A stretch of 64,000 nt of DNA from positions 74,440 to 138,439 of the forward strand of contig JBFMEZ010000025.1 of NCBI GenBank assembly GCA_040753215.1, written 5' to 3'. The notes under the pieces were generated by a model that ran no database searches, was not told the origin of the DNA, and was given only the letters and a program-made list of their open reading frames with translations. Both the position numbers and the translations under genes were made by a program. This document shows, piece after piece, positions 1-64,000 of the stretch. Positions within the stretch are counted from its first letter, which is position 1, and every line of letters starts with the position of its first letter. This stretch comes from Candidatus Micrarchaeota archaeon (GTDB lineage: Archaea; Micrarchaeota; Micrarchaeia; Anstonellales; Bilamarchaeaceae).

Positions 1-261
1 CGTGGTGGGGTAGCGCGTGTGCGCAATCCCGGCGCTCCCGTTCATATCCATATCCTTCTCAGAGAATATGCGCGAGACCAGCCCAATCCCCCTCTTCTCC
101 TCCAGTTTTTTACCGTTGTAGACCGCCATGCCCGCGGCATCCTGGCCCCTGTGCTGGAGCGCGAGCATGCCGTTGTAAACGTAGTTAGCCACGGGCTTGC
201 CGGTTTTGGACAGCACGGCGACTATGCCGCAGCTCTCCCGTTTTCCGTTCCCGGTTTTCAT
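1..261 (-). CDS. purF: Amidophosphoribosyltransferase (PurF-like class II glutamine amidotransferase), N-terminal part; the gene continues beyond the window start
   Basis: Reverse-complement translation reads MKTGNGKRESCGIVAV...YNGMLALQHRGQDAAGMAVYNG. It has a propeptide followed by a nucleophile Cys and an LQHRGQDAAG motif, as in PurF. The six-frame track only lists ATG-containing ORFs, so this partial gene is not in it. Confidence 0.55.
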   Translation of the reverse strand, partial: MKTGNGKRESCGIVAVLSKTGKPVANYVYNGMLALQHRGQDAAGMAVYNGKKLEEKRGIGLVSRIFSEKDMDMNGSAGIAHTRYPTT

Positions 262-443
262 ATCTCTGCGGAGATAACTTGCAGAAACCTGCCGGTTTCC
301 GCAATCCGGTTTCCAGTGCGCCGGCTCGTTTTCCATATCACATCTTTGCCGTTGATGTTTTAAAAACATCGTTTTGCCCTGCTGAATTGTAACCATGGTT
401 ACAAACCAGTTCTCAGTTTCCAGTTCCCTGTTTTCGAAACAGG

Positions 444-1631: not shown

Positions 1632-1798
1632 GTAGTTCTCGGTCTCCGGTTTCCAGTTTCCAGCCCGGGTAGCATACTGTTTATTCCGTTTGCCTTCTAA
1701 TAAACCTTCGCACGCCTCAGCCCGGTTTTCCCTGCATACATTCCTTACGCCGTCGGCTCCCAGATAGGTTTATATAACATTTCCGAGTAAATATAGAA

Positions 1799-2533: not shown

Positions 2534-2600
2534 TCGGTTCTCTGTCTCCGGTTCCCAGTTTCCCCGCACGCTTTTATCCCTTTCCTCCTAATCCATAGCC

Positions 2601-5064: not shown

Positions 5065-6402
5065 CTAAACAGCCTTCCTTATTATTTCCCTCGCCTTCCC
5101 CGCAACCTTGTCCAGCAATTCCTTATTCTTCGCTTCGGCCGTCAGTCTGATTATGCTTTCAGTTCCGGAAGGCCTAACAAGAACCCAATACCCTTCTCCA
5201 TCTATCCGTATCCCGTCCCCGGTTTCCAGTTTCCAGTTGCCGGTTTCCCGTTTCCAGCCTGATTCAAGCTCCGGCATTATCCTTTCCATCGCCTTTTTCC
5301 TGTCCGCAGTCTTATACTTCTCCCTGACCATTGGATTGGGTTTAAACCGGGCCGCAAGCGCACTGAATTTCCCTTTCTCACAGAACATCTCCACAAACTT
5401 CGCGGCAGCCATTACCCCATCAGGCACAAGCACTCCCCCCCTAAAGATGTACTCCCCAGCCGGCTCACCGCCAAAGACCCCCTCGCTCTTCACCATCTCC
5501 TCGCTCACATGCACGCTCCCCACAGAAGTCAAAACAAACTCCACCCCATTCTTCTCAACCGTCTCCTTCACAATGAGCGAGCTCTCCACCGTGCTCACCA
5601 CCTTCCCCTTCTTCTTTGCCAGCTCTTCCTCAATCATAAGCGCAAGTTGCACATCCGCATTCAAAAGCTCCCCTCTCTCATCCACAACTGCGCACCTGTC
5701 CGCATCCCCATCATGCGCAATGCCCAAATCCGCCCCGCATGCCCGTACCGCAGCAGAAAGCCAGGGCAGATTCTCCTTATTCGGCTCAGAAGGCCGGTTG
5801 AACCCCCTGGTTTCGCAGTTCAAGGATACAACCCTGCACCCCAGCTCCCTAAGAAGATAGGGCGTAACCACCGCCCCTGCCCCATTGCAGTCCACAACAA
5901 CCTTCGGCTTCTTCTTCGCAATCAGTTTCGCATCCACATTCCTCTTCACAAGTTCAACATATTCAGGAATTACATCCTCAACCCTCCTTCCCCCTGGAAA
6001 AGCCCCGTATTCCATCCCCTTTTCATATCTTTCCAGAACCCGCTTCTCTTCGTTTCTGCTTATCTCCCGCCCTTTTCTCATGAATTTCAAGCCATTATAC
6101 TCGGCCGGATTATGGGAAGCCGTAACCATCATCCCCCCGCACCCGAATTTCATGCTCGCAAAAGCCACTAAAGGAGTAGGCACAATCCCCAGCCCGATCC
6201 CATCATGCCCCGAACCCAAAACCCCACTCATGGCCGCAAAAGCCAGCGGAACCCCGCTCTCCCGCGTATCCCTTCCTATGCAGACATCTGATTCGGCAAA
6301 TGCATTTGCCATCCTTAACGCTAACTCAGGCGTAATCTCCTTTCCATAGATTCCCCTTATCCCCGAAGTCCCAAACATCGGTTTCCTATTCCCCAAAAGC
6401 AA
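5065..6402 (-). CDS. glmM: Phosphoglucosamine/phosphohexose mutase (GlmM/ManB family)
   Basis: The TASHNP phosphoserine motif, GIRG, and a C-terminal LVRPSGTE motif are present. A GTTTCC heptamer array is inserted in frame near the C-terminus (WKRETGNWKLETG). Confidence 0.8.
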   Translation of the reverse strand: MLLGNRKPMFGTSGIRGIYGKEITPELALRMANAFAESDVCIGRDTRESGVPLAFAAMSGVLGSGHDGIGLGIVPTPLVAFASMKFGCGGMMVTASHNPAEYNGLKFMRKGREISRNEEKRVLERYEKGMEYGAFPGGRRVEDVIPEYVELVKRNVDAKLIAKKKPKVVVDCNGAGAVVTPYLLRELGCRVVSLNCETRGFNRPSEPNKENLPWLSAAVRACGADLGIAHDGDADRCAVVDERGELLNADVQLALMIEEELAKKKGKVVSTVESSLIVKETVEKNGVEFVLTSVGSVHVSEEMVKSEGVFGGEPAGEYIFRGGVLVPDGVMAAAKFVEMFCEKGKFSALAARFKPNPMVREKYKTADRKKAMERIMPELESGWKRETGNWKLETGDGIRIDGEGYWVLVRPSGTESIIRLTAEAKNKELLDKVAGKAREIIRKAV

Positions 6403-6475: not shown

Positions 6476-8341
6476 ATGGCAGGCCAGAACGGAGATTCAA
6501 AAGCCCCACGGCAGGCAGTGGTTCCCCCAGAGCCGGGGCCGCCGGCCAGGAGGCTCGAATCCCGTGTCCCCACGCTCCCGCCCCAGGCTCCAGCACAGCC
6601 CAAGCCCCTGGTCGCAGGAATAGACAGGGCAGCAGGAATAAAGCCCTCTCAATCAACGGTTCCAGGGAGAACGCGGCCAAGGATTACCCGCATTTCCGAG
6701 TATCTCGCCGAGCTTAGGAGGATGGAAATGGCGCAGTCCCCCCCGCCCGCCGCGAGATTTGACAGGGACACGTACGAATTCATGCAGGGGTTGCGCGGAA
6801 AGGTTCAGGAGAGAAGGGAGCCGATGGACTGGTCCGGCATAGGCTGCGTAAAAGAAGCGCCTGCCCCGCATTCGCTCGTGGATACGCTCACAAACGGTTT
6901 CCCGGCAGCCGCGGAAGTGCCGGCCGGGGCTCCGCCAGGCACCGACGGGCTGCTTTCAAAGGAGCTGTGGGTTGAAGCCGGCCTCCCGCGCCTGCGCAAG
7001 AAGAAGCCGGCATCCATTGATGAGCCCCCTGACATCAAGAAGCGCCTTGACCAGTGGTGCCTTTCGCTTGACCATCCCGCAAAGGAGGTCCTGCTCAATT
7101 CCCTCATAGAGGACGCGGTCTCCGAATTCTCGGCCCTGAAGCGCGCGTCAAAGGGCCTGGTGACCGTCTGCTCCGGAGGAAGGCCCGACTACCTTCTCGA
7201 AGCCGAGGTCGGCGCACCGGTCGGCAACATCTCAGCCCAGTTCCTCAGGAAAATGAACACAATGAGAAAGCATGGCATTCTCCCGGAAGCGGACGCAAAG
7301 GCGCTGGTTGAGCAGCTCGTCCGCTTCGTCTTCCACAATCCCGGCCCGGTGGAGGGCCCCGGCATAACAGAGGCCGGCATGAGGAACGGCTTCTTCCGCG
7401 CTGTCACATGGTGCATATGCACGTGCACGAACCCCTCCCTGTTCCAGGAATTCTTCTCGAAGAACAACATACTGCTCATAGATGCGGTCGGGATAGCGGC
7501 AGGCCTCAATTCAGACGAGGCCAGGGCAGTTATGGGCGATGCGGGCGTTCGCTCCGCGCTTTACAGGCTCCTGAAAAAGAGGTGGGTGGCCACAGGTTTC
7601 GAGCACCTCAAGGAGACGCTAAGGGCGGACAGCGCCAGGGGGTTGCTCGACCCAAGGGCTGCGTTCCACTTCACCACGGTCCTTTTCAGGGAGGCCGGCG
7701 AATACCAGCGCATCGTACAGTCCTACTCCATACTCGCAAGGAACATGAGCAACCTTAAGGTAGTATCCCCCTCGCGCGGCATTCTTTACCTAAGCGAGAG
7801 GGAGTTCATCGCCTGCCTCAGGTCTAGGGGAAACCTGCAGCCCAGGCTCAGGGCCGGGATAGACAGGATGCACGAGTTCATAGCCGGGCTTTTCGCAGGC
7901 AGGGCAAAGGGTTCTGGCCAGGAGGAACACCAGTATGCGGTGGGCAGGAGCCCGGCGGAGATATCCGGGATATTCAACACGGTCCTTGAGGGGCTGGATT
8001 TTTTCATCGGAGACCCCAAGATGCGCAGGATGGCCCTGGAGGCGATACAGCACTATGGGATAGGGGGCGGGGAGGGCCAGCCGGCTTCCTTCAAGAAGAT
8101 ATTCGCGCTCTGCCTCTTCACGCGCTACAGGGACGTGCAGGATTACGGCAGGCTCTTCAGGCTGCTCTTCGACTATTCTGACCCAATAGTCTCGGACCTG
8201 GCCCTGGACCATGCCGCGTGGCTTCTGGCGCAGGAGGCAAACTTCATCCTGCTGCGCGAGGAAAAGCCGCGGGAGTCCGCCGCCACCCTAAGCCCGGAGG
8301 ACCTCGCGCAGATACTCGCGGAAGGGGATTCCCCGTTCTGA
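6476..8341 (+). CDS. Hypothetical protein with Pro-rich N-terminus and no recognisable domain
   Basis: 621-aa ORF with coding-like composition. A TATA-like sequence lies about 27 nt upstream. Confidence 0.45.
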   Translation: MAGQNGDSKAPRQAVVPPEPGPPARRLESRVPTLPPQAPAQPKPLVAGIDRAAGIKPSQSTVPGRTRPRITRISEYLAELRRMEMAQSPPPAARFDRDTYEFMQGLRGKVQERREPMDWSGIGCVKEAPAPHSLVDTLTNGFPAAAEVPAGAPPGTDGLLSKELWVEAGLPRLRKKKPASIDEPPDIKKRLDQWCLSLDHPAKEVLLNSLIEDAVSEFSALKRASKGLVTVCSGGRPDYLLEAEVGAPVGNISAQFLRKMNTMRKHGILPEADAKALVEQLVRFVFHNPGPVEGPGITEAGMRNGFFRAVTWCICTCTNPSLFQEFFSKNNILLIDAVGIAAGLNSDEARAVMGDAGVRSALYRLLKKRWVATGFEHLKETLRADSARGLLDPRAAFHFTTVLFREAGEYQRIVQSYSILARNMSNLKVVSPSRGILYLSEREFIACLRSRGNLQPRLRAGIDRMHEFIAGLFAGRAKGSGQEEHQYAVGRSPAEISGIFNTVLEGLDFFIGDPKMRRMALEAIQHYGIGGGEGQPASFKKIFALCLFTRYRDVQDYGRLFRLLFDYSDPIVSDLALDHAAWLLAQEANFILLREEKPRESAATLSPEDLAQILAEGDSPF

Positions 8342-8462
8342 GTTTCCAGTTTCCGTGTCTCTGCGGAGACAACTCCATGTTGCTTCGGCAACAACTGGCG
8401 AAGTTCTGCGGAACTTCACCATGGCAGAAACCCGCGGGTTTCCGCCATCGGGTTTCCAGTCA
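8341..8462 (+). repeat. Family A structured repeat (copy A1), flanked by GTTTCC heptamers
   Basis: A core of four consecutive hairpins: gtctctgcggagac, ttgcc-tc-ggcaa, gaagttc-tgcg-gaacttc, and atggcagaaacc...ggtttccgccat. It is near-identical to copies at 40809-40900 and 59453-59544. Confidence 0.8.
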
Positions 8463-9446
8463 TCTTTCTACGGTCGCGTTGTACCTCATCCCGTTCCAGA
8501 CTATCTTCACGTCCTCCCCTAGATAGTTCTCAATCACCGTTATGTTCCTCACGGTACCCAGGACCGCTGCGTTCTTCAGCGACTGCCTTGAATTTGTCCA
8601 GTCGGTTGCGCTCCCGCTTATCACAATCAGCTCCGGCTTCGTCTGGTCCATCATCCAGTTTATCTCAGTCAGCCCCGCGCCCATGCCGTGGTTCGGCCAC
8701 TGCACTATCTGGCACGGCCCGCTGAGCTGCGCGACCCTCTGCTGCGAGCCCAGTATGTCGCCCGTGAGCAGCACGCACAGCCCGCGGTCTTCAACCTTAA
8801 GGACAATCCCGTCATTATTCACGTCAAAGAACCTGTCCTCCCCCTTTATCGGGTTGAGCACGGTTATGTTTATCCCGTTCAGCACCGCACGGTCCCCTTC
8901 GCCAACAATCTTCAGGCTCTCTTCCCCAAGGTTCGCCAGGTAGGCGGCGTATTCCTGGCCCCCCTCCTCCGGCCTCCACACCTCCCCGAACCTGAACCTG
9001 TTGGACACGTACTCCAGCCCCCCATAGTGCTCAGGGTCATCGTGGGTTGAAACCACAAGCTCAAAATCGTCCACGCCCTTCTCCAGCAGCATGTTCACGA
9101 GTTTCTGCTGGCTTACAGAAGGCCCCCCGTCCACGAGTATGTCCGTGTCCCCTTTCTTTATGAGGACCGCATCCCCCTGCGTGTCCCCGGAGCCCACGTT
9201 GAAGAAATACACGTACAAATCCGTATTCGGCGTGCTCACGTACTCCGTGGCGCTCGCCTGCGGCGGGGTTGCGTTGCCCTGCGTGACCACAGTCCCCTCG
9301 CCCTCCCTTATCACAAGATAGCCGCCGGAAGCGTTTCCGGTTTCCGGTGTCCTGTTTCCGGTTTCCTGTTCTCCGGCAGGCGGCTGTCCGCCGCCGATGC
9401 AGCCCAAAACAAGCAAAAGAACCAGCCCGAATGCGATCCACTTCAT
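8460..9446 (-). CDS. Secreted metallo-beta-lactamase-fold lipoprotein (ComEC/Rec2-type MBL domain)
   Basis: Signal peptide with a lipobox-like LGCIGG. The MBL motifs LIDGG and HxHxDH-like STHDDPEH are present. An in-frame heptamer array after the signal peptide encodes ETGNRTPETGN. Confidence 0.6.
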   Translation of the reverse strand: MKWIAFGLVLLLVLGCIGGGQPPAGEQETGNRTPETGNASGGYLVIREGEGTVVTQGNATPPQASATEYVSTPNTDLYVYFFNVGSGDTQGDAVLIKKGDTDILVDGGPSVSQQKLVNMLLEKGVDDFELVVSTHDDPEHYGGLEYVSNRFRFGEVWRPEEGGQEYAAYLANLGEESLKIVGEGDRAVLNGINITVLNPIKGEDRFFDVNNDGIVLKVEDRGLCVLLTGDILGSQQRVAQLSGPCQIVQWPNHGMGAGLTEINWMMDQTKPELIVISGSATDWTNSRQSLKNAAVLGTVRNITVIENYLGEDVKIVWNGMRYNATVER

Positions 9447-9891
9447 ATTCTACACCAACAACCTCTTGGGTAATTCTTTTTATAAACATGCGCCGAATCC
9501 GTCCGGAATAATGCGGCAGAGAATAACACAACGGGCTTAAAACTCCCGCATCACCAGACTCCACATGGTTTCCAGACTTAGTTTCAGGTCAGAGGCAGAG
9601 CTAGGCAGGTATGTGGAACAGTAGCAGGGCAAGCTGGTCCCTGGTCGAAACGGCTTCAGGAAGATACTCGACCCCGAGGGCATGATAAGGGCCAACGTAA
9701 TACAGAATACGGACGGCTCCATCAGCGGGACCCAGTTTGCGACCCCGTTCCACACCCGGCGGGCATACGAAGAGAGAAAGGGCCATATCGGCCAGCCGGT
9801 GGAAAGGAGGGCTGGAGGGCTGCGCAGCGGATTCTGGCCGCAGGAGTGCATGCTGGATTAGAAGTTTCCGGTTTCCAGTTTTTTCTTATTC

Positions 9892-18268: not shown

Positions 18269-18361
18269 CTGTAATACCTCTATAATGTAACCATGGTTAC
18301 ATGCCAGTTTTCAGCTTCCGGTCTCCAGTTTCCAGAACGGGAAACCCGAAACAGGAAACCA

Positions 18362-22507: not shown

Positions 22508-22530
22508 TGCGGCCGCCGGGATTCGAACCC
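22508..22530 (-). other. Displaced 23-nt copy of the tRNA-Gly(TCC) 3' end (T-arm plus acceptor), an att-like duplication
   Basis: Identical to positions 23141-23163 of the intact tRNA. It is separated from the tRNA by the cdd cassette. Confidence 0.8.
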
Positions 22531-22534
22531 TCCC

Positions 22535-22629
22535 AAAAACGCGGAGGGGAGCGCCCCTCCCCATTTTTAGGGTTCATTCTGACCCTCCCCCAACTTCTCT
22601 TTGCAACCCTTTGCCAGTACTCCTTACGC
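22535..22629 (+). repeat. Family B repeat, copy B1
   Basis: It contains aaaacgcggaggggagcgcccctcccca (a near-palindromic hairpin), then ttctgaccctccccc, ctttgcaa, and ...actccttacgc. Nine other copies are present in the window. Confidence 0.8.
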
Positions 22630-22634
22630 AAGGT

Positions 22635-23024
22635 TCAATATGCCTTATCCCAAGGATATGGAAGCAGCTCCCTGAGTTTGGCTACTTTATTTTTTCCAAT
22701 AATAACTTCTGTATCCAGGTTTTCTTCACTAATCTGGCTCATGAACTCTCTGCACGCTCCACACGGAGGGATAATTCCATATTCCGAAACTGCCACTATT
22801 TTCTTTATTTTGTACTCCCCGTTCGTAACCATGGCAGCGATGGCACCCTGTTCTGCACAGAAACCCATGCCAGAGGCGGTGTCTATACTTACGCCCGAAT
22901 AAATAGTGCCTTTATTTGAAATTAGCGCACATCCAACATCCCCGATTGTGAATCCGTGTTTTATCTTTCTCGGCTTCAATATGGATTTGGCCTTCTCAAC
23001 CAGTTGCTCATCCGTTATTTGCAT
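22635..23024 (-). CDS. cdd: Cytidine deaminase
   Basis: The zinc-binding motifs CAEQGAI and PCGACREFM are present. The protein is ~129 aa, starting at MQITDEQL. The gene is markedly AT-rich (~40% GC) relative to its surroundings. Confidence 0.8.
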   Translation of the reverse strand: MQITDEQLVEKAKSILKPRKIKHGFTIGDVGCALISNKGTIYSGVSIDTASGMGFCAEQGAIAAMVTNGEYKIKKIVAVSEYGIIPPCGACREFMSQISEENLDTEVIIGKNKVAKLRELLPYPWDKAY

Positions 23025-23140: not shown

Positions 23141-23211
23141 TGCGGCCGCCGGGATTCGAACCCGGGTCGTTGGCTTGGAAGGCCAAAATCCTACCGCTAG
23201 ACTACGGCCGC
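23141..23211 (-). tRNA. tRNA-Gly (anticodon TCC)
   Basis: Cloverleaf: acceptor GCGGCCG/CGGCCGC, D-arm TAGTCTAGCGGTAGGA, anticodon stem ttggc/gccaa with loop cttCCaa, and T-arm GGGTTCGAATCCC. CCA is not encoded. Confidence 0.85.
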
Positions 23212-23287: not shown

Positions 23288-23334
23288 TCTGCATCGCTGC
23301 GGCGATGTCTGGCGAAGTTCTGCGGAACTTCACC
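23288..23334 (+). repeat. Family A repeat, partial copy A2
   Basis: It contains the gcatcgctgcggcgatg hairpin followed by tctggcgaagttctgcggaacttcacc. Confidence 0.6.
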
Positions 23335-23396
23335 ATCGCTCGGCGCAAAAAGGAGCCCAAAAACCTCAAGCTCCTTTACCTCATTTCTCTCTACGT

Positions 23397-23448
23397 TTCT
23401 GACCCCCTCCCACTTCACTTTGCAACTCTTTGAACGTACTCCTTACGC
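23397..23448 (+). repeat. Family B repeat, partial copy B2, upstream (on the minus strand) of tRNA-Gly(TCC)
   Basis: Reads ttctgaccccctcccacttcactttgcaactctttgaacgtactccttacgc. Confidence 0.7.
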
Positions 23449-23500
23449 GTGGGGTTCAGTATTTATATTATGGCAAGAGAAGAAAATTAAAAGACCGCGC

Positions 23501-35076: not shown

Positions 35077-35214
35077 TTAGGGGGCACAGTTCCAGTTTCC
35101 TGTATCCGGTTTTCAGTTTCGATTGCTTTATGGCTATGCTTTCCATTTTTGTAGTCCCATCCAATCGGGAAAGTGGAGACTGAAAACCTGTTGCTGGAAA
35201 CCGAAGACTGATTT

Positions 35215-35238
35215 AGCCCCGGAGGGGGATTGAACCCC
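35215..35238 (-). other. Displaced 24-nt copy of the tRNA-Thr 3' end (T-arm plus acceptor)
   Basis: Matches positions 35871-35894 of the intact gene. It is followed directly by B-family copy B4 (35241-35333). Confidence 0.75.
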
Positions 35239-35240
35239 TC

Positions 35241-35333
35241 CAAGAAGAAGGGGGAAGGCGTTCCCCCCTCTCTTTAGGGTAATCATACCCCCCTTCCACT
35301 TCACTTCGTCACTCTTTGCACGTGCTCCTTACG
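35241..35333 (+). repeat. Family B repeat, copy B4
   Basis: Reads aagaagaagggggaaggcgttcccccctctctttagggtaatcata...cttcacttcgtcactctttgcacgtgctccttacgc. Confidence 0.75.
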
Positions 35334-35375
35334 CCCGACCGAAAGAGATTAAATCCACGCCCCAGAACATCTCGT

Positions 35376-35870: not shown

Positions 35871-36078
35871 AGCCCCGGAGGGGGATTGAACCCCCGACCT
35901 CTCGCTGTCCCGTTTCCGGTTTCCGCATCTCTGCGGAGATGACTCCGCTTCTCTGCGGAGAAGACTGGCAGAATCCTTCGGGATTCCGCCATGGCAGAAA
36001 CCTGCTGGTTTCCGCCATCCTGTTTCCAGTTCCGAACCGGATTACGAGGCGAGCGCTCTACCGCTGAGCTACCGAGGC
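35871..36078 (-). tRNA. tRNA-Thr (anticodon CGT) with ~136-nt intron (about 35906-36041) in the anticodon loop at or near position 37/38
   Basis: Exon 1 reads GCCTCGGTAGCTCAGCGGTAGAGCGCTCGCCTCGTAA and exon 2 reads GCGAGAGGTCGGGGGTTCAATCCCCCTCCGGGGCT. The anticodon stem is ctcgc/gcgag with loop ctCGTaa. The intron contains a family-A repeat copy. Confidence 0.7.
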
Positions 36079-36080
36079 GC

Positions 36081-36174
36081 AAAGAGGAAGGGGGAAGCGT
36101 TCCCCCTTCTCTTTAGCGTAATCATAACTCCCTTCAACTTTGCTTAGGGGATGCTTTGCTCGTACTCCTTACGC
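36081..36174 (+). repeat. Family B repeat, copy B5, directly upstream of the tRNA-Thr 5' end
   Basis: Reads aaagaggaagggggaagcgttcccccttctctttagcgtaatcataac...ctttgctcgtactccttacgc. Confidence 0.75.
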
Positions 36175-36304
36175 ATTTCTTTGCTCCCCAACTTTTATTA
36201 AATTGAGGAGAACGCCAGGAGCAGGATTTGAACCTGCAATCCCTTGCGGGACTCGTTTTCGAGACGAGCGCGTTCACCGGGCTCCGCCATCCTGGCAGCA
36301 ATTA

Positions 36305-36982
36305 TTATACTCCGCTTATTTTCTTAAACCTGATTGCATCCTCGCCCATAGTAATGTTGTTGAAGAATACGTACTCCGCTCCCCTCGTTTTCTTTGCAAT
36401 TTCCTTTAGCTCCGCATCGCTGAATGTATAATAATACATCATCCTTTCTCCCAATCCGTGCAATCTGTAATACCCAATTTTCCGATGAAAACTCTCCTGC
36501 CTCAAAGGGTCCACAATATGCTCCAGCTCTAGTTCTTCAAATAGGGGCTCCGCAATCTCCCGTGTCCAGTCCTTGCTCCATCTCACCTCCCACCCCAGCC
36601 TAAACTCTTCCCGCTTAATCTTCCCGAAGAATTTCCTCGCCCTCGCAATATTCTCCTTCGTAGGCTTAAATGAAGCAGGAGATTGGAAAACCAGAAAGTC
36701 CGCCCTCAACAATTCCGCAACTTTCTTCGTCTCCCAAAATGCCTTCACCGATTCCGCTCCTCTAAACCTGTCAAAATGCGTCACAGTTCGCAAAACCTTC
36801 AGCGTAAACTCAAACTCCGGATTCACCGAATCCGCCTTCGCCCTCCACTTCTCCGCGGTCTTCAGCATAGGCAGTTTATAGAAGGTGGAATTCACCTCCA
36901 CCGCAGGAAATGCATGCACATAATTCAGCAGCCTGTCTCCCCTCTCAGGAAAAGAAGACCATCCGCAGGTTCCTATTTTCAT
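36305..36982 (-). CDS. DUF72 family protein
   Basis: The N-terminus reads MKIGTCGWS and a YRLHG motif is present. Confidence 0.7.
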   Translation of the reverse strand: MKIGTCGWSSFPERGDRLLNYVHAFPAVEVNSTFYKLPMLKTAEKWRAKADSVNPEFEFTLKVLRTVTHFDRFRGAESVKAFWETKKVAELLRADFLVFQSPASFKPTKENIARARKFFGKIKREEFRLGWEVRWSKDWTREIAEPLFEELELEHIVDPLRQESFHRKIGYYRLHGLGERMMYYYTFSDAELKEIAKKTRGAEYVFFNNITMGEDAIRFKKISGV

Positions 36983-38633: not shown

Positions 38634-38768
38634 CGGCCGCTCCAAGAGGAAGGGGGAGCGCCCCCTTCTCTCTAGGGTACTCATAACCCCCCATCAATTG
38701 CGGGGCTGTGAATTCATTCTGACCCCCTCCCACTTCACTTTGCAATGCTTTACTCGTACTCCTTACGC
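38634..38768 (+). repeat. Family B repeat, copy B6 (long form), upstream of tRNA-Gly(GCC)
   Basis: Reads aagaggaagggggagcgcccccttctctctagggtactcataa...cattctgaccccctcccacttcactttgcaatgctttactcgtactccttacgc. Confidence 0.75.
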
Positions 38769-38853
38769 ATAGGGGCGTGCATCTCTTCTAACCGAAGAGC
38801 ATTCCTATTTTCCAATAAAACCTTTTATTAACTTTCTTGCAGCAATTTGCTCC

Positions 38854-40511: not shown

Positions 40512-40790
40512 ATGGAATATATCATACTCTCACCCTGCACAACCGCAAAGACCCGGGAACTCCGCATGCGCGGCAGGATAGACATCCGCAAGGCGGAGAA
40601 AGCCCTCCCCCCGGAAGCTGATATCCTCGCGTTCACAGAAGTGTTCCTTTCCCTCGCCTACAAGGGAAAACCCTTCTCCCTCTACCCCTCCGGAAAGATA
40701 ATAGTGAAGGATTCGGAGGCGGAAGAGGCGAAGTCCCTTCTGAAGGAGATGTTCTCCCTTTTAGAGAGAAAAGGGTGCCTGAGTGAGTAG
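40512..40790 (+). CDS. Small hypothetical protein
   Basis: 92-aa ORF. Confidence 0.3.
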   Translation: MEYIILSPCTTAKTRELRMRGRIDIRKAEKALPPEADILAFTEVFLSLAYKGKPFSLYPSGKIIVKDSEAEEAKSLLKEMFSLLERKGCLSE

Positions 40791-40808
40791 CCAGTCCCCC
40801 GTTTCCAC

Positions 40809-40900
40809 ATCGCTTCGCGATGACTCCATGTTGCCTCGGCAACAACTGGCGAAGTTCTGCGGAACTTCACCATGGCAGAAACCTTCCGGGTTTCCGCCAT
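40809..40900 (+). repeat. Family A repeat, copy A4, overlapping the 5' end of the PHP gene
   Basis: Reads atcgcttcgcgatgactccatgttgcctcggcaacaactggcgaagttctgcggaacttcaccatggcagaaaccttccgggtttccgccat. Confidence 0.8.
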
Positions 40901-41538
40901 CCAGTTTCCCGAAGCTAAACATTGACTTCCACGTGCACACCTCCTTCTCTTCGGATGGAAGGATAAAATTAGCTGAACTCGCCTCCCTTTCCAAACAATT
41001 CGGAATAATCCCCGCCCTCACCGACCACAACAACATGGATGCCTGCTCCCCCTTCAAAAAATTCGAAATCCCCTTCATCCCCGGAGAGGAAATCCGCGTT
41101 GCACAGGGCGATTTCATAGGCCTCTTCCTCTCCGAGCCGATTCCTGAAGGGATAGATTTCTACGAAGCCCTCGACTTAATCCGTGCGCAGGGAGCCCTCG
41201 CTTATGTCCCGCACATGTTCGACGCACTCCGCCCCGGAGTAGTAAAGGAGGAATACGGAAAAGCCGCAGACATAATAGAAGTATTCAACGCCCGCTCCTT
41301 CGCCCGCTTCGACAGGCAGGCAGAAGAATTCGCCAAAAGGGAAGGCAAATTAATGGCGGCAGGAAGCGACGCCCACTTCCCGTTCGAATTCGGGCACACT
41401 TATACCGAATTAAGCCTCACCCCAGACCAACTGGAACCCAAATCTCTTCTCCGCGCTTTAAAGAATGCGAGAATAGCAGGAAAGCGCACTTCTTTTCTCA
41501 AGAGGAAAATAGCGAAATATACCGGAATCTACATCTAA
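40828..41538 (+). CDS. PHP-domain phosphoesterase; the only in-frame ATG lies inside repeat A4
   Basis: The PHP motif begins at LNIDFHVHTSFSSDG, with a later GSDAH motif. No ATG/GTG/TTG lies between the repeat and the first His motif. The annotated N-terminus MLPRQQLAKFCGTSPWQKPSGFPPSSFPK is therefore repeat-encoded. Confidence 0.6.
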   Translation: MLPRQQLAKFCGTSPWQKPSGFPPSSFPKLNIDFHVHTSFSSDGRIKLAELASLSKQFGIIPALTDHNNMDACSPFKKFEIPFIPGEEIRVAQGDFIGLFLSEPIPEGIDFYEALDLIRAQGALAYVPHMFDALRPGVVKEEYGKAADIIEVFNARSFARFDRQAEEFAKREGKLMAAGSDAHFPFEFGHTYTELSLTPDQLEPKSLLRALKNARIAGKRTSFLKRKIAKYTGIYI

Positions 41539-43816: not shown

Positions 43817-43920
43817 CCAGGGAAGATATCCGCAGATTTGCAGCCTCAGATTGTCGGTTATGGAAGGAAAAAATCCGCAAAAGTTTCCTTCCATGTTAGA
43901 CGCCTTATAGCATCGTTTTT

Positions 43921-44122
43921 CACTGAACCTCCACGGCTCGGTCACACCTTGTAGTCGCCTGCGTGGCGGCGATAGGTCTGCCTAGCCATTGGGTGCGGCT
44001 ACAAGGTGTGAGGAAGCCTCGGCATTTATGCCGGGGAGGAGAGCCGAGGCTTCCTCTAAAGGCAGCAGGAATACATCTGCCCTTTATCTACGAAGAAGCC
44101 ACGGCCTTTAGTGGAGGTTCAC
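43921..44122 (+). repeat. Family C ~200-nt structured repeat, copy C1
   Basis: 99% identical to 46120-46325. The ends (cactgaacctccac...gtggaggttcac) are inverted-repeat-like and can pair. It has internal hairpins (gaggaagcctcggc/gccgaggcttcctc and caccttgtag/ctacaaggtg). Confidence 0.8.
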
Positions 44123-46054: not shown

Positions 46055-46119
46055 CCTAATCCTCGCTTACCTATAATCAGGCATACTTTTATTTCTCTGC
46101 CTGCCGCAGCCGGCAGACT

Positions 46120-46325
46120 CACTGAACCTCCACGGCTCGGTCACACCTTGTAGTCGCCTGCGTGGCGGCGATAGGTCTGCCTAGCCATTGGGTGCGGCTA
46201 CAAGGTGTGAGGAAGCCTCGGCATTTATGCCGGAGAGGAGAGCCGAGGCTTCCTCTAAAGGCAGCAGGAATACATCTGCCCTTTATCTACGAAGAAGCCA
46301 CGGCCTTTAGGCCGTGGAGGGTCAC
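46120..46325 (+). repeat. Family C repeat, copy C2
   Basis: See copy C1. This copy ends in the perfect hairpin gccacggcc-ttta-ggccgtggag. Confidence 0.8.
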
Positions 46326-59151: not shown

Positions 59152-59433
59152 CTACTTGAACACGATCTTCGTTTCCCTTTCGCCCCCGCGCATCATCCGC
59201 AGAAGGGCAAGCACTTCCGCATCCCCGAGCTTCTTCCCGCCCCTCTTCGCGTACGCGAGAACCTGCCTCGCGGCAGCGGCATACAGCTCCGGCTTCGCAA
59301 GCCTCACGTTCATGAGCCGCTCATACGCTTCCGGGGTGAGGCAAAGGCGTAGCGCCGCTTTCAGCTGCGCCTCCATCCTTTTCGCTTCCAGGAGCCTTTC
59401 CTCTTCGCTCCCGGCTCCCTCCTCTTCGCCCAT
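59152..59433 (-). CDS. PDCD5/TFAR19-like double-stranded DNA-binding protein
   Basis: The segment LTPEAYERLMNVRLAKPELY matches the family. The position between rps19e and rpl39e is conserved. Confidence 0.7.
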   Translation of the reverse strand: MGEEEGAGSEEERLLEAKRMEAQLKAALRLCLTPEAYERLMNVRLAKPELYAAAARQVLAYAKRGGKKLGDAEVLALLRMMRGGERETKIVFK

Positions 59434-59452
59434 ATAAGTCCCCAGTTTCTAT

Positions 59453-59544
59453 ATCGCTTCGCGATAACTCCATGTTGCCTCGGCAACAACTGGCGAAGTT
59501 CTGCGGAACTTCACCATGGCAGAAACCCCCCGGGTTTCCGCCAT
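59453..59544 (+). repeat. Family A repeat, copy A5 (between rps19e and the PDCD5-like gene)
   Basis: Reads atcgcttcgcgataactccatgttgcctcggcaacaactggcgaagttctgcggaacttcaccatggcagaaaccccccgggtttccgccat. Confidence 0.8.
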
Positions 59545-59570
59545 CCGGTTCCCAGTCCCCGGTTCCGCGC

Positions 59571-59984
59571 TCAGCCGCCCTTTATCGCGGTTGCTGCTTT
59601 GTCAAGCAGCGCCCTCCCTTTCGGGGTCAGTTCCCTCCCTTTCCTGGCCTTCCTCATGAGCCCGGCCTTCTCAAGCGCCTGCATGGCCTTCCTTATCGTT
59701 GAGCCCCCGGCGGGCCTGTGCTTCTGCGGCTTCACGCCCCTTCCCTTCCTTCCGCCGTAGTGCCTCCTCAGCCTCTGCACCCCGGTCCCCGGGTTCACGT
59801 ATGCCTGCCTCATGACCGAGGCGCACCTCACAAACCAGAAGTCAGGGTCCTCGGGGGGCCTCTCGGCGTGGGCGCCGCTCTTCACTATTCCCACGAACGC
59901 GGGCCTCTCTATCCCCATCTCCCTGAGCCTTCCGGCCACTTCCTTCACGAGCCTGTTCGGCTCCACGTCATAAGCTCTGACCAT
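59571..59984 (-). CDS. rps19e: Ribosomal protein S19e
   Basis: The protein begins MVRAYDVEPNRLVKEVAGRL and continues ...PAFVGIVKSG. 137 aa. Confidence 0.75.
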   Translation of the reverse strand: MVRAYDVEPNRLVKEVAGRLREMGIERPAFVGIVKSGAHAERPPEDPDFWFVRCASVMRQAYVNPGTGVQRLRRHYGGRKGRGVKPQKHRPAGGSTIRKAMQALEKAGLMRKARKGRELTPKGRALLDKAATAIKGG

Positions 59985-61996: not shown

Positions 61997-63511
61997 TTAC
62001 CCCTTCCCTATTCGGCTACCCCTCAGCCAGTCCAGATCATTCTTATAGAACGTCCTTATATCCGCAAGCCCTTCCATGAGCATCATCGGCCTTTCCAGGC
62101 TCAGCCCCCACGCAAGCACCGGATAAACGCCGCAGAGCGGCTTCGTCATCTCGGGCCTGAATATCCCGGCCCCGCCAAGCTCCATCCAGCCCCCGGTTCC
62201 CGGCGAACCAAACCTCCGCTCCTCCTTCCCTTCAGTTGCTCTGGAGGTTTGGTTCGGTTCCCCGTTTCCGGCTTTCCGCTCAAAAAATACCTCTATCTCC
62301 AGGCTCGGCTCCGTGTACGGGAAATAGCTCGGCCTGAACCTTATCTTCTCAAACCCCAGCCTGCTGTAGAACTCCTTCAGCAATCCGAGAAGGTGCCTGA
62401 AGTTCGCCCCGTCCCACGCCACTATGCCCTCCACCTGGTGGAATTCCGCAAGGTGCTTGAAGTCCGTCGCCTCGTTCCTGAACACCCTTCCCACGCAGAA
62501 GTATTTTTTCCCCTTCCCCCCGCTTTTCCTGAGCGTCTCATCCAGCTTCGCGAGGTACCTCGCGCTCACCGCGGTCGTGTGTGTGCGCAGAACCATCTTC
62601 CGTGCCTCTTCCGCGCTCCATGGGCATTTCCATCCTTCCTCATGGCTCTTCTTCACCTTCTCTACTATTTTCCTGTCCGGCAGCTCCCCGTCCATTTCCA
62701 GATAGAAAGTGTCCGCCAAATCACGGGCAGGGTGGTCCTGCGGCTGGAACAGGGCATCGAAGTTCCAGAACGCGCTCTCGACCATGGGCCCCTCCATCTC
62801 CTCGAATCCCATCTCTATGAAAATCCTCCTTATCCTTTCCGTCATCCGCGTCAGCGGGTGCATCTTGCCCACCGGCTCATCAGCCGCCGGCGCGACCGCA
62901 TATGGGCTGAACTCCGCGCCCTTCCACTTCCCGCTCACGATAATCCCATGCGTCAGCTCGCCGATCTCCTCCCCCATCCCGCCGATTCCCTTCGCCTCCC
63001 CCTCGCCCTTTTTTGTGAGCGCCACGAGCATCTTCCTGTGTTCGCTCTCCAGGAGCAGCCCCCTCCCCACGAGGGTTTCCAGTTCCCGGTTTCCCGTTTC
63101 CAGCTTCTCCGGCTCCCTCGCCGCCTTCTCAAGCGCATACTCCCCCGGCTTCCTGACCGCCTTTACCCTCCCGTTCTCAATCGCAATCCAGCCGTTCTTC
63201 TTCGCCCACATCACCCCTATTCTTTTTTCTTCTTCACTCAGTTCCCCCACCGCCTTCCCGCCCTTCGCCGCAACCCTCACTTCCGGGAACCCTTCCCTCA
63301 AAAACCGTTCGCACTCCGCGCTCCTCGCATATTCTTTCGCGGCCCTCTCCTCCACTTCCACAAGCCCCTTCTCCTGCAGCCAGAGCGCCGCCCTCCTGAA
63401 CGCGTCCAGCTCTCCGGGCCCCTTCGCAAGGGCTTCCAGGCCGTGGCTGCCGGCTCCGGCATCCAGAAGCCTCTTCAGCAGAATCTTTTCCGTCCTGTGG
63501 AGTATCATCAC
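61997..63511 (-). CDS. pheS: Phenylalanyl-tRNA synthetase alpha subunit (archaeal type)
   Basis: The class II core motifs FRNEATD...EFHQVEG and the C-terminal motif 3 are present. Two in-frame heptamer-array insertions are present (PEKLETGNRELETLVG and ERKAGNGEPN). Confidence 0.85.
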   Translation of the reverse strand: MMILHRTEKILLKRLLDAGAGSHGLEALAKGPGELDAFRRAALWLQEKGLVEVEERAAKEYARSAECERFLREGFPEVRVAAKGGKAVGELSEEEKRIGVMWAKKNGWIAIENGRVKAVRKPGEYALEKAAREPEKLETGNRELETLVGRGLLLESEHRKMLVALTKKGEGEAKGIGGMGEEIGELTHGIIVSGKWKGAEFSPYAVAPAADEPVGKMHPLTRMTERIRRIFIEMGFEEMEGPMVESAFWNFDALFQPQDHPARDLADTFYLEMDGELPDRKIVEKVKKSHEEGWKCPWSAEEARKMVLRTHTTAVSARYLAKLDETLRKSGGKGKKYFCVGRVFRNEATDFKHLAEFHQVEGIVAWDGANFRHLLGLLKEFYSRLGFEKIRFRPSYFPYTEPSLEIEVFFERKAGNGEPNQTSRATEGKEERRFGSPGTGGWMELGGAGIFRPEMTKPLCGVYPVLAWGLSLERPMMLMEGLADIRTFYKNDLDWLRGSRIGKG

Positions 63512-63537
63512 TGCTCCCTCTTTTTCCTCGCCAAGAC

Positions 63538-63650
63538 AAAACGCGGAGGGGGGCGCCCCTCCTCATTTTTTCCTGGATGGTGAAATTCCGCAGAATTTCG
63601 CCAGACATCGCCGCAGCGATGCAGATTTTCTGATCCTCCCCCCACTTCAC
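63538..63650 (+). repeat. Family B repeat (copy B10) with a nested inverted partial family A copy (A6, 63579-63624)
   Basis: Reads aaaacgcggaggggggcgcccctcctca, then rc(tggcgaagttctgcggaacttcacc...), then cctccccccacttcac. It is flanked by ttttcctc-containing direct repeats. Confidence 0.7.
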
Positions 63651-64000
63651 TCATCCTCCGCTTTTCCTCTTCCTCGCTTGTAGATAGAAATACGAGCCCG
63701 CCACTATCAGCACGAGCAGCAGCGCGGGTACCCCCTGCGGGCCGCGCAGGAAACCGTAAAGTTCCGTCCTCGCGCCTATGAAGAAGCCGACCACCTCCTG
63801 GTCCAGGCTCTCCTCCTTCTCGAATATGAGCGAGAAGTGCGCGAGCACCTCGTTCTGCCAGCTCATCTGCACCCTCCCGCCACTCTCGGCGCTCTCCTCC
63901 GGCAGCGGGCTCACGTAGAGCACCTTCGCCCCCTGCGGCAGCTCGAAGGTGATCCTCTGGTTCTCCCCCAGTATGACATCCCCGAGCTCGCTCGTCTCGA
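63651..64000 (-). CDS. C-terminal part of a protein with C-terminal TM anchor and basic tail (gene continues beyond window end)
   Basis: The ORF ends ...ALLLVLIVAGSYFYLQARKRKSGG*. Its upstream sequence runs off the window. Confidence 0.4.
   Translation of the reverse strand, partial: ETSELGDVILGENQRITFELPQGAKVLYVSPLPEESAESGGRVQMSWQNEVLAHFSLIFEKEESLDQEVVGFFIGARTELYGFLRGPQGVPALLLVLIVAGSYFYLQARKRKSGG

Follow-up and report, generated by a model that had tools for sequence, protein, structure and literature searches.

A mosaic hairpin repeat of a Micrarchaeota archaeon looks like a counterpart of bacterial extragenic palindromic and miniature-transposon repeats

Family A at the focal locus and across the window

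The stretch of DNA analysed here (the window; 64,000 nt, positions 74,440 to 138,439 of contig JBFMEZ010000025.1, assembly GCA_040753215.1) comes from a Candidatus Micrarchaeota archaeon and holds, between two convergent genes (a 621-aa open reading frame (ORF) and an MBL-fold gene), a stack of hairpins bounded by GTTTCCN heptamers. It belongs to a repeat named Family A in an earlier note made from the sequence alone, and fills the whole gap between the two stop codons (Table 1). Family A looks like an archaeal counterpart of the bacterial repetitive extragenic palindromic (REP) sequences and interspersed mosaic elements (BIMEs), or of miniature-transposon repeats, rather than a new RNA gene. 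In the window it is represented by three full copies with four hairpins (H1–H4), two two-hairpin cores, one minimal copy, and one copy in a tRNA-Thr intron; the seven places are those listed in the earlier note, and each was borne out by pattern counts, alignment, and a covariance model. An H3 18-mer has 9 matches in the window against 0.02 expected by chance, and the H4 pattern has 6 against 0 expected. The covariance model, built from six copies and run unfiltered on both window strands, finds all of these seven places and no other copy with hairpins in the window; the remaining matches (~20, all weak) are bare heptamer arrays that align with the two ends of the model and lack its core.

The gene contexts of the seven copies are all different, and all copies lie outside ORFs or in the intron. 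The arrangement of the bare core upstream of tRNA-Gly(UCC) recurs upstream of tRNA-Leu in L003 (L numbers denote related loci). Pairwise identities of the three 92-nt cores are 88.2, 90.3, and 96.7%, so that the >90% claimed for all full copies holds for two pairs and fails for one, whereas the 100-nt flanks are only 44–54% identical in global alignment, a value that, in our judgement, is close to what unrelated sequences would give (no control was aligned). The full copies are therefore dispersed and not segmental duplications with identical flanks, the outcome that the earlier note had named as contrary to its proposal. Recent duplication or an assembly artefact, for which only the high identity of copies 2 and 3 (96.7%) speaks, has next to no probability in view of these flanks, the seven gene contexts, and the related units present in independent assemblies (NCBI, ENA, JGI, and Logan).

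Table 1. Features of Family A, its surroundings, and related elements (window coordinates unless a locus is named)
Feature	Coordinates	Strand	Remarks
Left heptamers GTTTCCA GTTTCCG, focal copy	8342..8355	+	begin one base after the stop codon of the 621-aa ORF
H1, TGTCTC-TGCG-GAGACA	8356..8371	+	covarying hairpin; ATCGC, ATCTC or ATCAC in other copies
H2, TGTTGC-TTCG-GCAACA	8378..8393	+	optional; not in the L007 copy nor in any two-hairpin core
H3, GGCGAAGTTC-TGCG-GAACTTCACC	8397..8420	+	perfect 7-bp stem; outer stem with conserved C·A mismatch (U·G on -)
H4, ATGGCAGAAACC-CGCG-GGTTTCCGCCAT	8421..8448	+	inverted-heptamer palindrome with conserved A·C mismatch (G·U on -)
Right heptamer GTTTCCA	8452..8458	+	
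Full copy 1 (focal): heptamers, H1-H4, heptamer	8342-8460	+	core 8357-8448 listed in the earlier note
Full copy 2: heptamers, H1-H4, heptamer	40787..40921	+	flanked by a conserved 92-aa ORF and a PHP-domain gene, both +
Full copy 3	59431..59565	+	ribosomal-protein operon spacer, rps19e to PF01984 gene
Bare 49-nt H1+H3 core	23288..23336	+	in a conserved cassette upstream of tRNA-Gly(UCC)
Inverted H1+H3 core	63577..63628	-	G-rich terminator-like hairpin on one side, D7-type unit on the other
Diverged copy: two H1-type and two H4-type hairpins with heptamers	35905..36039	+	nearly the whole tRNA-Thr(CGU) intron
Minimal copy: heptamers, H1, H4, heptamers	240..326	+	directly upstream of the purF start codon; purF on -
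Stop codon of the 621-aa ORF	8339-8341	+	
Convergent MBL-fold gene	8460-9446	-	stop codon right after the right heptamer
rps19e	59571-59984	-	
PF01984 DNA-binding protein gene	59155-59433	-	
tRNA-Thr(CGU) gene	35871..36078	-	Rfam span 35871-36078; 136-nt intron 36042..35907, after position 37
Solo array GTTCTCT GTCTCCG GTTCCCA GTTTCCC	2537..2564	+	
Second repeat family	22510-22655, 23397-23475, 35190-35360, 36079-36200, 38641-38800, 63530-63700		
TnpB ORF	L005 6441-7631	-	OrfB_IS605 7e-29; Cas12f1-like TNB domain 1e-22; HTH_OrfB_IS605 2.5e-7

Mosaic architecture and covariation

Family A is a mosaic of three parts: heptamers, (GTTTCCN)n, on both sides; the hairpin H4; and a 49-nt core of H1 and H3 that optionally holds H2. 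GTTTCCN heptamers bound every copy, as had been noted before, and an invariant frame (left heptamers, H1, H4, and CCATCCN followed by heptamers) runs through the aligned copies. The interior varies: H1+H4 at 240-326, H1+H3+H4 in L007, the addition of H2 in the three full copies, and two H1-type with two H4-type hairpins in the intron copy. The ~90-nt unit of the earlier note is recognisable in the three full 92-nt cores, but the other copies are modular, so that the unit is a mosaic. In the focal copy, H4 is followed by CGG and then by one more heptamer. The 3' arm of H4 (GTTTCCG) is a further heptamer that keeps the 7-nt register of the array downstream, and the 5' arm is its inverted complement. 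The ends are direct repeats of the heptamer; the six-copy alignment shows no terminal inverted repeats (TIRs).

H3 and H4 (units of 24–28 nt) are mutually related, with a common foot (ATGGYG...YGCCAK), a variable but complementary 6-bp top, and one non-Watson–Crick position. The stack had been described as four perfect hairpins; it is real in the full copies, but H4 and the outer stem of H3 carry the conserved mismatch, whose position does not differ among the H3 and H4 variants seen (A·C on the plus strand, G·T or G·U on the minus strand). Variants that keep it include GAAACC/GGTTTC, GAATCC/GGATTC, TTGC/GCAA feet, and the tops AAGTTC, AAATTC, and AAGTCC, and it is still kept in L013, where the outer pair changed from G-C to A-T (GGC/ACC to GAC/ATC). 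Stem complementarity is maintained despite sequence drift, as the earlier note had proposed: among 16 distinct versions of the core, 98.3% of the cells are paired and 6 of the 15 pairs changed on both sides, values matched by 0 of 500 shuffles, and sliding the partners abolishes the pairing. H4 covaries as well (GAAACC/GGTTTC versus GAATCC/GGATTC; TGGC/GCCA versus TTGC/GCAA). Most of the unbiased covariation sits in H1 (ATCGC, ATCTC, ATCAC, and GTCTC).

Empty and filled orthologous sites

The focal site is empty in three relatives (L033, L034, and L035; GlmM 83–85% identical, gene order conserved), in which the MBL-fold gene and the convergent 530–549-aa gene overlap by 4 nt and hence leave no space for the element. 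None of the H1, H3, and H4 hairpins occurs in these 13–20-kb loci, with synteny over about 19 kb at 83–85% amino-acid identity, and heptamer-like stretches number 1–2 there versus about ten in the syntenic 16 kb of the window. The site of copy 2 is likewise empty in L009 (syntenic, 75–88% amino-acid identity), where the 92-aa ORF abuts the PHP gene; the window has ~130 extra nt at this site, heptamers included. Conversely, in L007 (77–89% amino-acid identity) an H1+H3+H4 core lies within the array orthologous to the bare array at 2537-2564, which thus represents the 'empty' state of a Family A site. L007 is without arrays matching window 1635-1662 and 409-436.

A further pair of states was found in the tRNA-Thr(CGU) gene. 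Removal of its 136-nt intron gives a canonical 72-nt tRNA, called Thr(CGT) by ARAGORN. The same tRNA in L036 (adjoining DUF72 gene 89% identical) has a 42-nt intron that consists of a bare array, CGGAAAC TGGAAAC CGGCAAC AGGAAAC, and the window intron corresponds to such an array plus four hairpins. A bulge–helix–bulge, drawn by eye around the window intron, has a central helix and 3-nt bulges, but 1–2 extra unpaired A's beside the outer helix, and would be a relaxed motif. Based on this presence and absence at orthologous sites, Family A copies are lineage-specific insertions, with array alone and array plus core as alternative states of a site. Among the options of the earlier note, that of an element like a miniature inverted-repeat transposable element (MITE) is therefore the best of the three, the focal site being empty in three relatives and other sites alternating between empty and filled. 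In the leader of tRNA-Ser, L036 (2573-2690) has ~105 nt, including a G-rich hairpin, between an A/T-rich promoter-like box and the tRNA, whereas at window 36298-36340 the tRNA directly follows such a box; tRNA leaders are thus insertion sites too.

The 49-nt core in relatives and its link to an IS605-family TnpB element

An exact-pattern scan (one genome per species) located the H3 region in three Candidatus Micrarchaeota/Micrarchaeia metagenome-assembled genomes, and a metagenome scan for H3 gave 24 further loci, most of them at contig ends, as expected for a dispersed repeat. Scans of viral contigs with three patterns gave no matches, and nothing relevant was found in the literature on Micrarchaeota repeats or tRNA-intron repeats. 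The core, TCYGCAT..(H1)..GTCT..(H3)..CACCAT, has sharp ends and occurs in more than 10 unrelated contexts of at least four genomes, usually at the junction of loop and 3' arm of a larger G+C-rich hairpin. For example, the hairpin GAAGGGGGAA-GCG-TTCCCCCTTC upstream of a tRNA is bare at window 36087-36109 and core-filled in L008 and L013, and two bare versions of a terminator-like B hairpin cassette (window 22529-22614 and L010) contrast with filled ones in L002, L007, and window 63577-63628, where the core takes both orientations relative to the cassette. In L001, the core lies within an H4-type hairpin, in opposite orientation. Strong purifying selection was considered as a reading of the conservation of H3 in 26 of 26 cases and is weakened, because H3 was the search probe and the figure is partly so by construction. 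Copies found incidentally, and hence unbiased by the probe, comprise L007 position 7190 with an identical top, L013/L015 with GAAGTCC-CGCG-GGACTTC (two compensatory changes), and window 63579-63602 with GAAATTC/GAATTTC, likewise a compensatory change.

The core also occurs at the 3' end of tnpB, at the right end of an insertion sequence (IS) of the IS605 family, in L005, L029, and metagenome loci; no window copy is so placed. In ~20 near-identical metagenome copies and L005, it stands near the beginning of a repeat that starts GTGACATGCTCCCCGCC; read in the tnpB sense from the 3' end of the gene, ...GCCCCGCC[ATGGTGAAGTTCCGCAGAACTTCGCC AGAC ATCTCCGCAGAGAT GCGGA]TTTAGGGCGGGGAGATGTCAC leads to the end of the element. 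In L005, the placement is CCCCGCC[core]TTTAGGGCGGGG, 12 nt from the element tip, with the core in its G·U orientation inside the right-end hairpin CCCCGCCC-TTTA-GGGCGGGG and within the region that encodes the guide (omega) RNA in this IS family; a matching hairpin, again with a TTTA loop, stands at the left end (CCATGGGC-TTTA-GCCCATGG). At L018 5609 the right-end hairpin is present without the core, which is thus an optional insert even in the IS. By blastn, Family A and the IS right end match only over the 46–52-nt core (31 nt at the three full copies), and the rest of the omega-RNA scaffold region has no match in the window.

The identity of the H1+H3 core with part of the 3' scaffold of the TnpB element (L005 and metagenome loci), in the sense that bears the G·U pairs, might suggest that the Family A copies are relics or stand-alone copies of omega-RNA genes. 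We regard this as very improbable: the similarity is confined to the core, no tnpB is found in the window, the IS copy without the core makes the core an optional insert and not scaffold, and the 3' flank of the copies consists of heptamers and not of a unique guide. As Family A is without the IS termini and only an optional insert is common to both, it is not classed as a deletion derivative of the IS.

The TnpB IS itself is active, as shown by a strain-level polymorphism between L037 and L036, which hold the same DUF72 protein and of which only L037 has the IS, inserted directly after tRNA-Ser; the junctions (L037 ~2150-2286, with the IS right end after the tRNA, ...TTCTCTAT|GTGACATG; empty L036 ~2775-2800, ...TTCTCTAT|TTAAGAAAA) suggest a TTAA-type target. 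Several other copies lie 30–50 nt upstream of tRNA genes in L011, L022, and L023, and mini-derivatives consisting of left end plus right end occur in L012 and L011. In the window, a 192-nt repeat pair (the D5 pair, 43920-44111 / 46119-46310, 99% identical) has inverted ends that derive from the IS left-end hairpin (CCACGGCC-TTTA-GGCCGTGG), with homologous copies in L011, L025, and L028; by its ends, this pair is a MITE, or palindrome-associated transposable element (PATE), of the TnpB IS family.

Heptamer arrays

The heptamers are an independent, expanding array family. Read on the minus strand, the arrays, (NGGAAAC)n, are open in all frames, and they are translated in real proteins. In GlmM (window 5208-5256), 7 extra residues, WKRETGN, correspond to exactly 21 nt or three units and are absent from 15 orthologs, which already hold four heptamer-like units there. 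The linker of the MBL-fold lipoprotein (9333-9374) reads EQETGNRTPETGN, with six units versus a single QETGG seed in L033. PheRS-alpha (63075-63109) reads EKLETGNRELET, and the purF propeptide (240-260) reads MKTGNGKRES, both array-encoded. As the relatives hold seed units in GlmM and in the MBL linker, the arrays grow at GGAAAC-like seeds; the growth may proceed by slippage, by recombination, or as 7-bp footprints of insertion and excision.

Such growth invites an explanation of the whole family that needs no transposase, in which arrays would lengthen at GGAAAC-like seeds through slippage or duplication, a fold-back (inverted) duplication of the array would create H4, and the core would then pass between arrays via ectopic recombination or gene conversion, with the heptamers as the homology. 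It accords with the array growth at existing seeds (21 nt in GlmM; from one seed to six units in the MBL linker), the constant direction of the core with respect to its own heptamers, the arms of H4, which are heptamer sequence in 7-nt phase, and the solo arrays, which align as the element minus its core. We nevertheless consider it quite unlikely, as it leaves unexplained the sharp-ended core in heptamer-free hairpin loops (the TnpB right end, the tRNA leader, and B-type hairpins); in addition, copy 2 came with heptamers into a site that is without an array in L009, and 14–28 nt of degenerate homology are short for recombination.

Folding, transcription, and the structured-RNA alternative

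On either strand, the folds of the copies are well below those of shuffled sequences in energy, both for RNA (z -4.2 to -6.4) and for DNA (z -4.7 to -6.0). The minus strand is the more stable one as RNA (for example, -52.7 versus -51.1 and -72.1 versus -62.7 kcal/mol), and its core also as DNA (-16.2 versus -13.7), because the conserved position is G·T or G·U there and A·C on the plus strand. As for transcription, copy 2 lies between two plus-strand genes, which places the plus form in the transcript. Copy 3, in the minus-strand rps19e operon, is read as the minus form, and so are the copies in the intron and in tRNA leaders; the focal copy lies between convergent genes. As copies are read in both senses, the orientation is independent of transcription. 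A single RNA strand had been inferred from the wobble pairs; that idea is weakened by these two senses and by the H4-type hairpins of L001, which are opposite to the core.

These data bear on whether Family A is a structured RNA useful to its host (one that stabilises 3' ends or intercistronic regions, terminates transcripts, signals processing, or serves as a platform for proteins) under selection on RNA structure. All stems covary, G·U is conserved on one strand, YNMG-type loops closed by C-G stand on the other, all copies lie in likely transcribed regions (operon spacers, tRNA leader, tRNA intron, and convergent gap), and it is the G·U form of the core that occupies the omega-RNA region of the TnpB element. 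However, the element would be plus RNA at 40.8 kb but minus RNA at 59.5 kb and in the intron, and it takes both orientations in the D7/B cassettes; it is missing from the orthologous spacers of relatives at 83–89% amino-acid identity, where it is hence not needed; the wobbles and the loops favour opposite strands; and there is no Rfam match. A search of the window and six loci with Rfam 15 at the gathering score gave only tRNAs, and that of the element region of L016 at E up to 10 gave only chance-level matches. We thus take a host-useful RNA to be unlikely, and a dedicated RNA gene family is unlikely as well; the ~90-nt structured RNA family offered in the earlier note is not supported, in view of the two orientations to transcription, the lineage-specific insertions, and the lack of an Rfam match. 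Two specific signals were also tried and rejected. The three-way junction of the core, compared by eye with the hammerhead core (CUGANGA / GAAA), did not fit a self-cleaving ribozyme in either orientation, and no bulge–helix–bulge excision signal surrounds the core, as neither 3-nt bulges nor a complementary exon–intron helix are seen in the hairpin-loop contexts.

Strand asymmetry, preferred reading, and proposed mechanism

The orientation of Family A is biased with respect to the DNA strand: one and the same direction is found for 6 of 7 copies and for 16 of 20 solo arrays (22:5 in total, binomial p = 0.0015, from counts without full independence). The GC skew of the plus strand is negative, strong, and uniform (-0.07 to -0.41 in most 2-kb windows; -0.02 to +0.08 in three), and about two thirds of the coding sequence of the window is on the minus strand. 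At third codon positions, according to our own rough gene calls, the plus strand is C-rich both in plus-strand genes (-0.12) and in minus-strand genes (-0.38), which suggests a single replication-type asymmetry across the window. The G·T-bearing strand of most copies is the G-rich strand. From the GC skew of bacteria, the G-rich strand is assumed to be the lagging-strand template, which is less established for archaea. Under this assumption, the orientation of the G·T strand agrees with that of IS200/IS605 elements, which insert into the lagging-strand template (PMC5027513), an agreement that is suggestive only.

Altogether, we lean, with restrained confidence, towards reading Family A as a lineage-specific, non-autonomous, mosaic mobile DNA element of the REP/BIME or PATE type. 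The imperfect palindromes with a conserved foot and mismatch, the covarying tops, the arrangement in mosaics, the extragenic location, the presence and absence at orthologous sites, and the occurrence of the core in an IS605-family right end all favour it, and so do the more stable fold of the minus strand and the strand bias of copies and arrays.

Several points weigh against this preference. The loops on the plus strand resemble stable RNA tetraloops, C(UGCG)G, C(UUCG)G, and C(CUCG)G, and hint at selection at the RNA level; standing on the strand opposite to the wobbles, they leave two RNA-type arguments that favour opposite strands. The 7-mers directly flanking the core match each other at 5–6 of 7 positions and are indistinguishable from the surrounding array, so that, the flanks being heptamer repeats and the relatives ~15–20% diverged, insertion boundaries and target duplication are unreadable. 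H3 and H4 stand in tandem in all window copies, not as the inverted pairs of REPINs and BIMEs; the one inverted H3/H4-type arrangement seen is the nested insertion of L001. Family A is also without the GTGAC tip and the TTTA-loop hairpins of the IS. Neither the 64-kb window nor ~330 kb of related loci yielded a Y1/HUH transposase, a REP-associated tyrosine transposase (RAYT), or TnpB; the Y1 search consisted of an HUH...Y motif scan and tblastn with an approximate IS608 TnpA query. Finally, the orientation counts are small and confounded by a 2:1 excess of minus-strand genes, and the near-invariance of H3 across genomes is partly an artefact of ascertainment.

With Family A taken as a mobile DNA element, the following sequence of events may be proposed. 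A short (GTTTCCN)n array would acquire a hairpin core and so give rise to one copy. The core is made up of H4, an inverted copy of the adjacent heptamer, and of the discrete 49-nt H1+H3 module, with H2 optional. This module is itself an insertion unit, found in sister genomes at the apex of unrelated G+C-rich hairpins, including the TnpB right-end/omega-RNA 3' region. The form in which the hairpins are recognised and mobilised is, we infer, single-stranded DNA, much as HUH Y1 transposases move IS200/IS605 ends and REP/BIME sequences; the G·T-containing strand (the minus strand of the window) would be the active one. The copies themselves are presumably neutral and would survive where they do no harm, i.e., in intergenic and intra-operon spacers, on hairpin tops, in tRNA leaders, and in a tRNA intron that is spliced out. 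It is conceivable, though doubtful, that the 49-nt H1+H3 unit is the smallest self-contained mobile unit so far seen in archaea, pasted specifically at the junctions of hairpin loop and 3' arm, with the arrays serving as landing pads or being 7-bp footprints of repeated insertion and excision. If true, DPANN archaea would possess an undescribed hairpin-into-hairpin system of transposition or recombination, whose by-products would be the 'ETGN' linkers written into proteins and a longer tRNA intron.

Other repeats and neighbouring features

The 621-aa ORF (6476-8341) is without a Pfam domain and 70–90 residues longer than its L033–L035 orthologs (530–549 aa), to which its C-terminal part, beside the focal repeat, aligns poorly. 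On the other side of the MBL-fold gene, the region 9447-9891 places ~420 nt, with GGAAAC heptamers at its bounds, between this gene and a translin-like gene; it is absent from L033–L035 (27–30-nt spacer) and holds a 78–104-aa ORF on either strand with no Pfam match. A perfect palindrome, TGTAACCATGGTTACA, is present at 388-403 and 18286-18301, beside heptamer arrays downstream of two minus-strand genes, and is kept at the orthologous L007 site.

In a second repeat family, a G-rich hairpin comes after GCGTAAGGAGTAC...GAAGTGGGAGGGGGTCAGAA. Units of this family lie in front of tRNA-Gly(UCC), tRNA-Thr, tRNA-Gly(GCC), and two orphan copies of tRNA 3' ends, of which 22508-22530 duplicates 23141-23163 and 35215-35238 duplicates 35871-35894. 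The units could be att-like remnants or tRNA-leader cassettes.

Significance and comparison with known systems

Beyond the earlier note, the analysis adds that the unit is a mosaic, that the H1+H3 core is common to the IS605/TnpB right end, and that the heptamers expand independently. To our knowledge, repeats of the REP/BIME type and their single-strand transposases have been a bacterial phenomenon so far; a mosaic REP-like system in a ~1-Mb DPANN archaeon would mean that elements of this sort invade archaeal genomes even when these are very reduced. The free-standing hairpin module tied to the TnpB right end/omega-RNA bears on how scaffolds tolerate or acquire insertions, the tRNA-Thr gene offers a concrete and datable case of an archaeal intron that went from 42 to 136 nt through repeat gain, and the heptamer arrays add in-frame peptide to conserved enzymes. 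In practice, such repeats break metagenome assemblies (most metagenome matches lie at contig ends) and can seed false ORF calls.

As in REP, BIME, and REPIN systems, the H3 and H4 units of Family A are short imperfect palindromes with a conserved foot and one conserved stem mismatch. Their apical stems differ among copies yet stay complementary; they stand in mosaics with other short motifs, extragenically, between convergent genes and inside operons; and their number and composition at a locus vary between relatives. In the REPs of Escherichia coli, the stem mismatch and a 5' motif are required for binding and cleavage by TnpA-REP (PMC3333891). Unlike in these systems, the host of Family A is archaeal (DPANN), the foot motif is not GTAG, the window and ~330 kb of related loci yielded no RAYT/REPtron, the hairpins are embedded in 7-nt arrays, and the 49-nt two-hairpin unit is an insertion module of its own. 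PATEs are MITE-like derivatives of IS200/IS605 elements, for example in Haloquadratum (PMC3119063). Family A shares with them a hairpin-based make-up without TIRs or coding capacity and a core identical to sequence in the right end of an IS605-family element, an IS that forms mini-derivatives; it lacks the termini and TTTA-loop hairpins of a parent IS, having only the optional 49-nt insert in common. The position of the core in the tnpB-proximal structured region (3' part, G·U orientation) is that of a TnpB omega-RNA (reRNA) at an IS605 right end, whereas the window copies have neither tnpB, nor the remaining scaffold, nor a guide-like 3' flank. From a classical MITE, Family A differs by the absence of TIRs, its ends being direct heptamers.

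Rickettsia palindromic elements are reportedly small repeats tolerated in odd places, including functional RNA genes; likewise, one Family A copy lies in a tRNA gene and the heptamer arrays are translated in frame (7 aa more in GlmM), but the hairpin core was seen in no ORF and only the arrays are translated. The 136-nt intron, at the canonical position 37/38, behaves as archaeal tRNA introns do in that its removal restores tRNA-Thr(CGU), whereas the other Family A copies have no bulge–helix–bulge context; since the 42-nt intron of L036 is without hairpins, the element is a passenger in the intron and not an intron family. For repeats of the REP/BIME/PATE kind, the 49-nt hairpin-into-hairpin module, the heptamer landing arrays, and the growth of a tRNA intron are unusual. 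Thus, Family A works like the REP/BIME and IS200/IS605-end systems and yet can be filed under none of them, as it is without inverted REP pairs, GTAG, IS termini, and TIRs.

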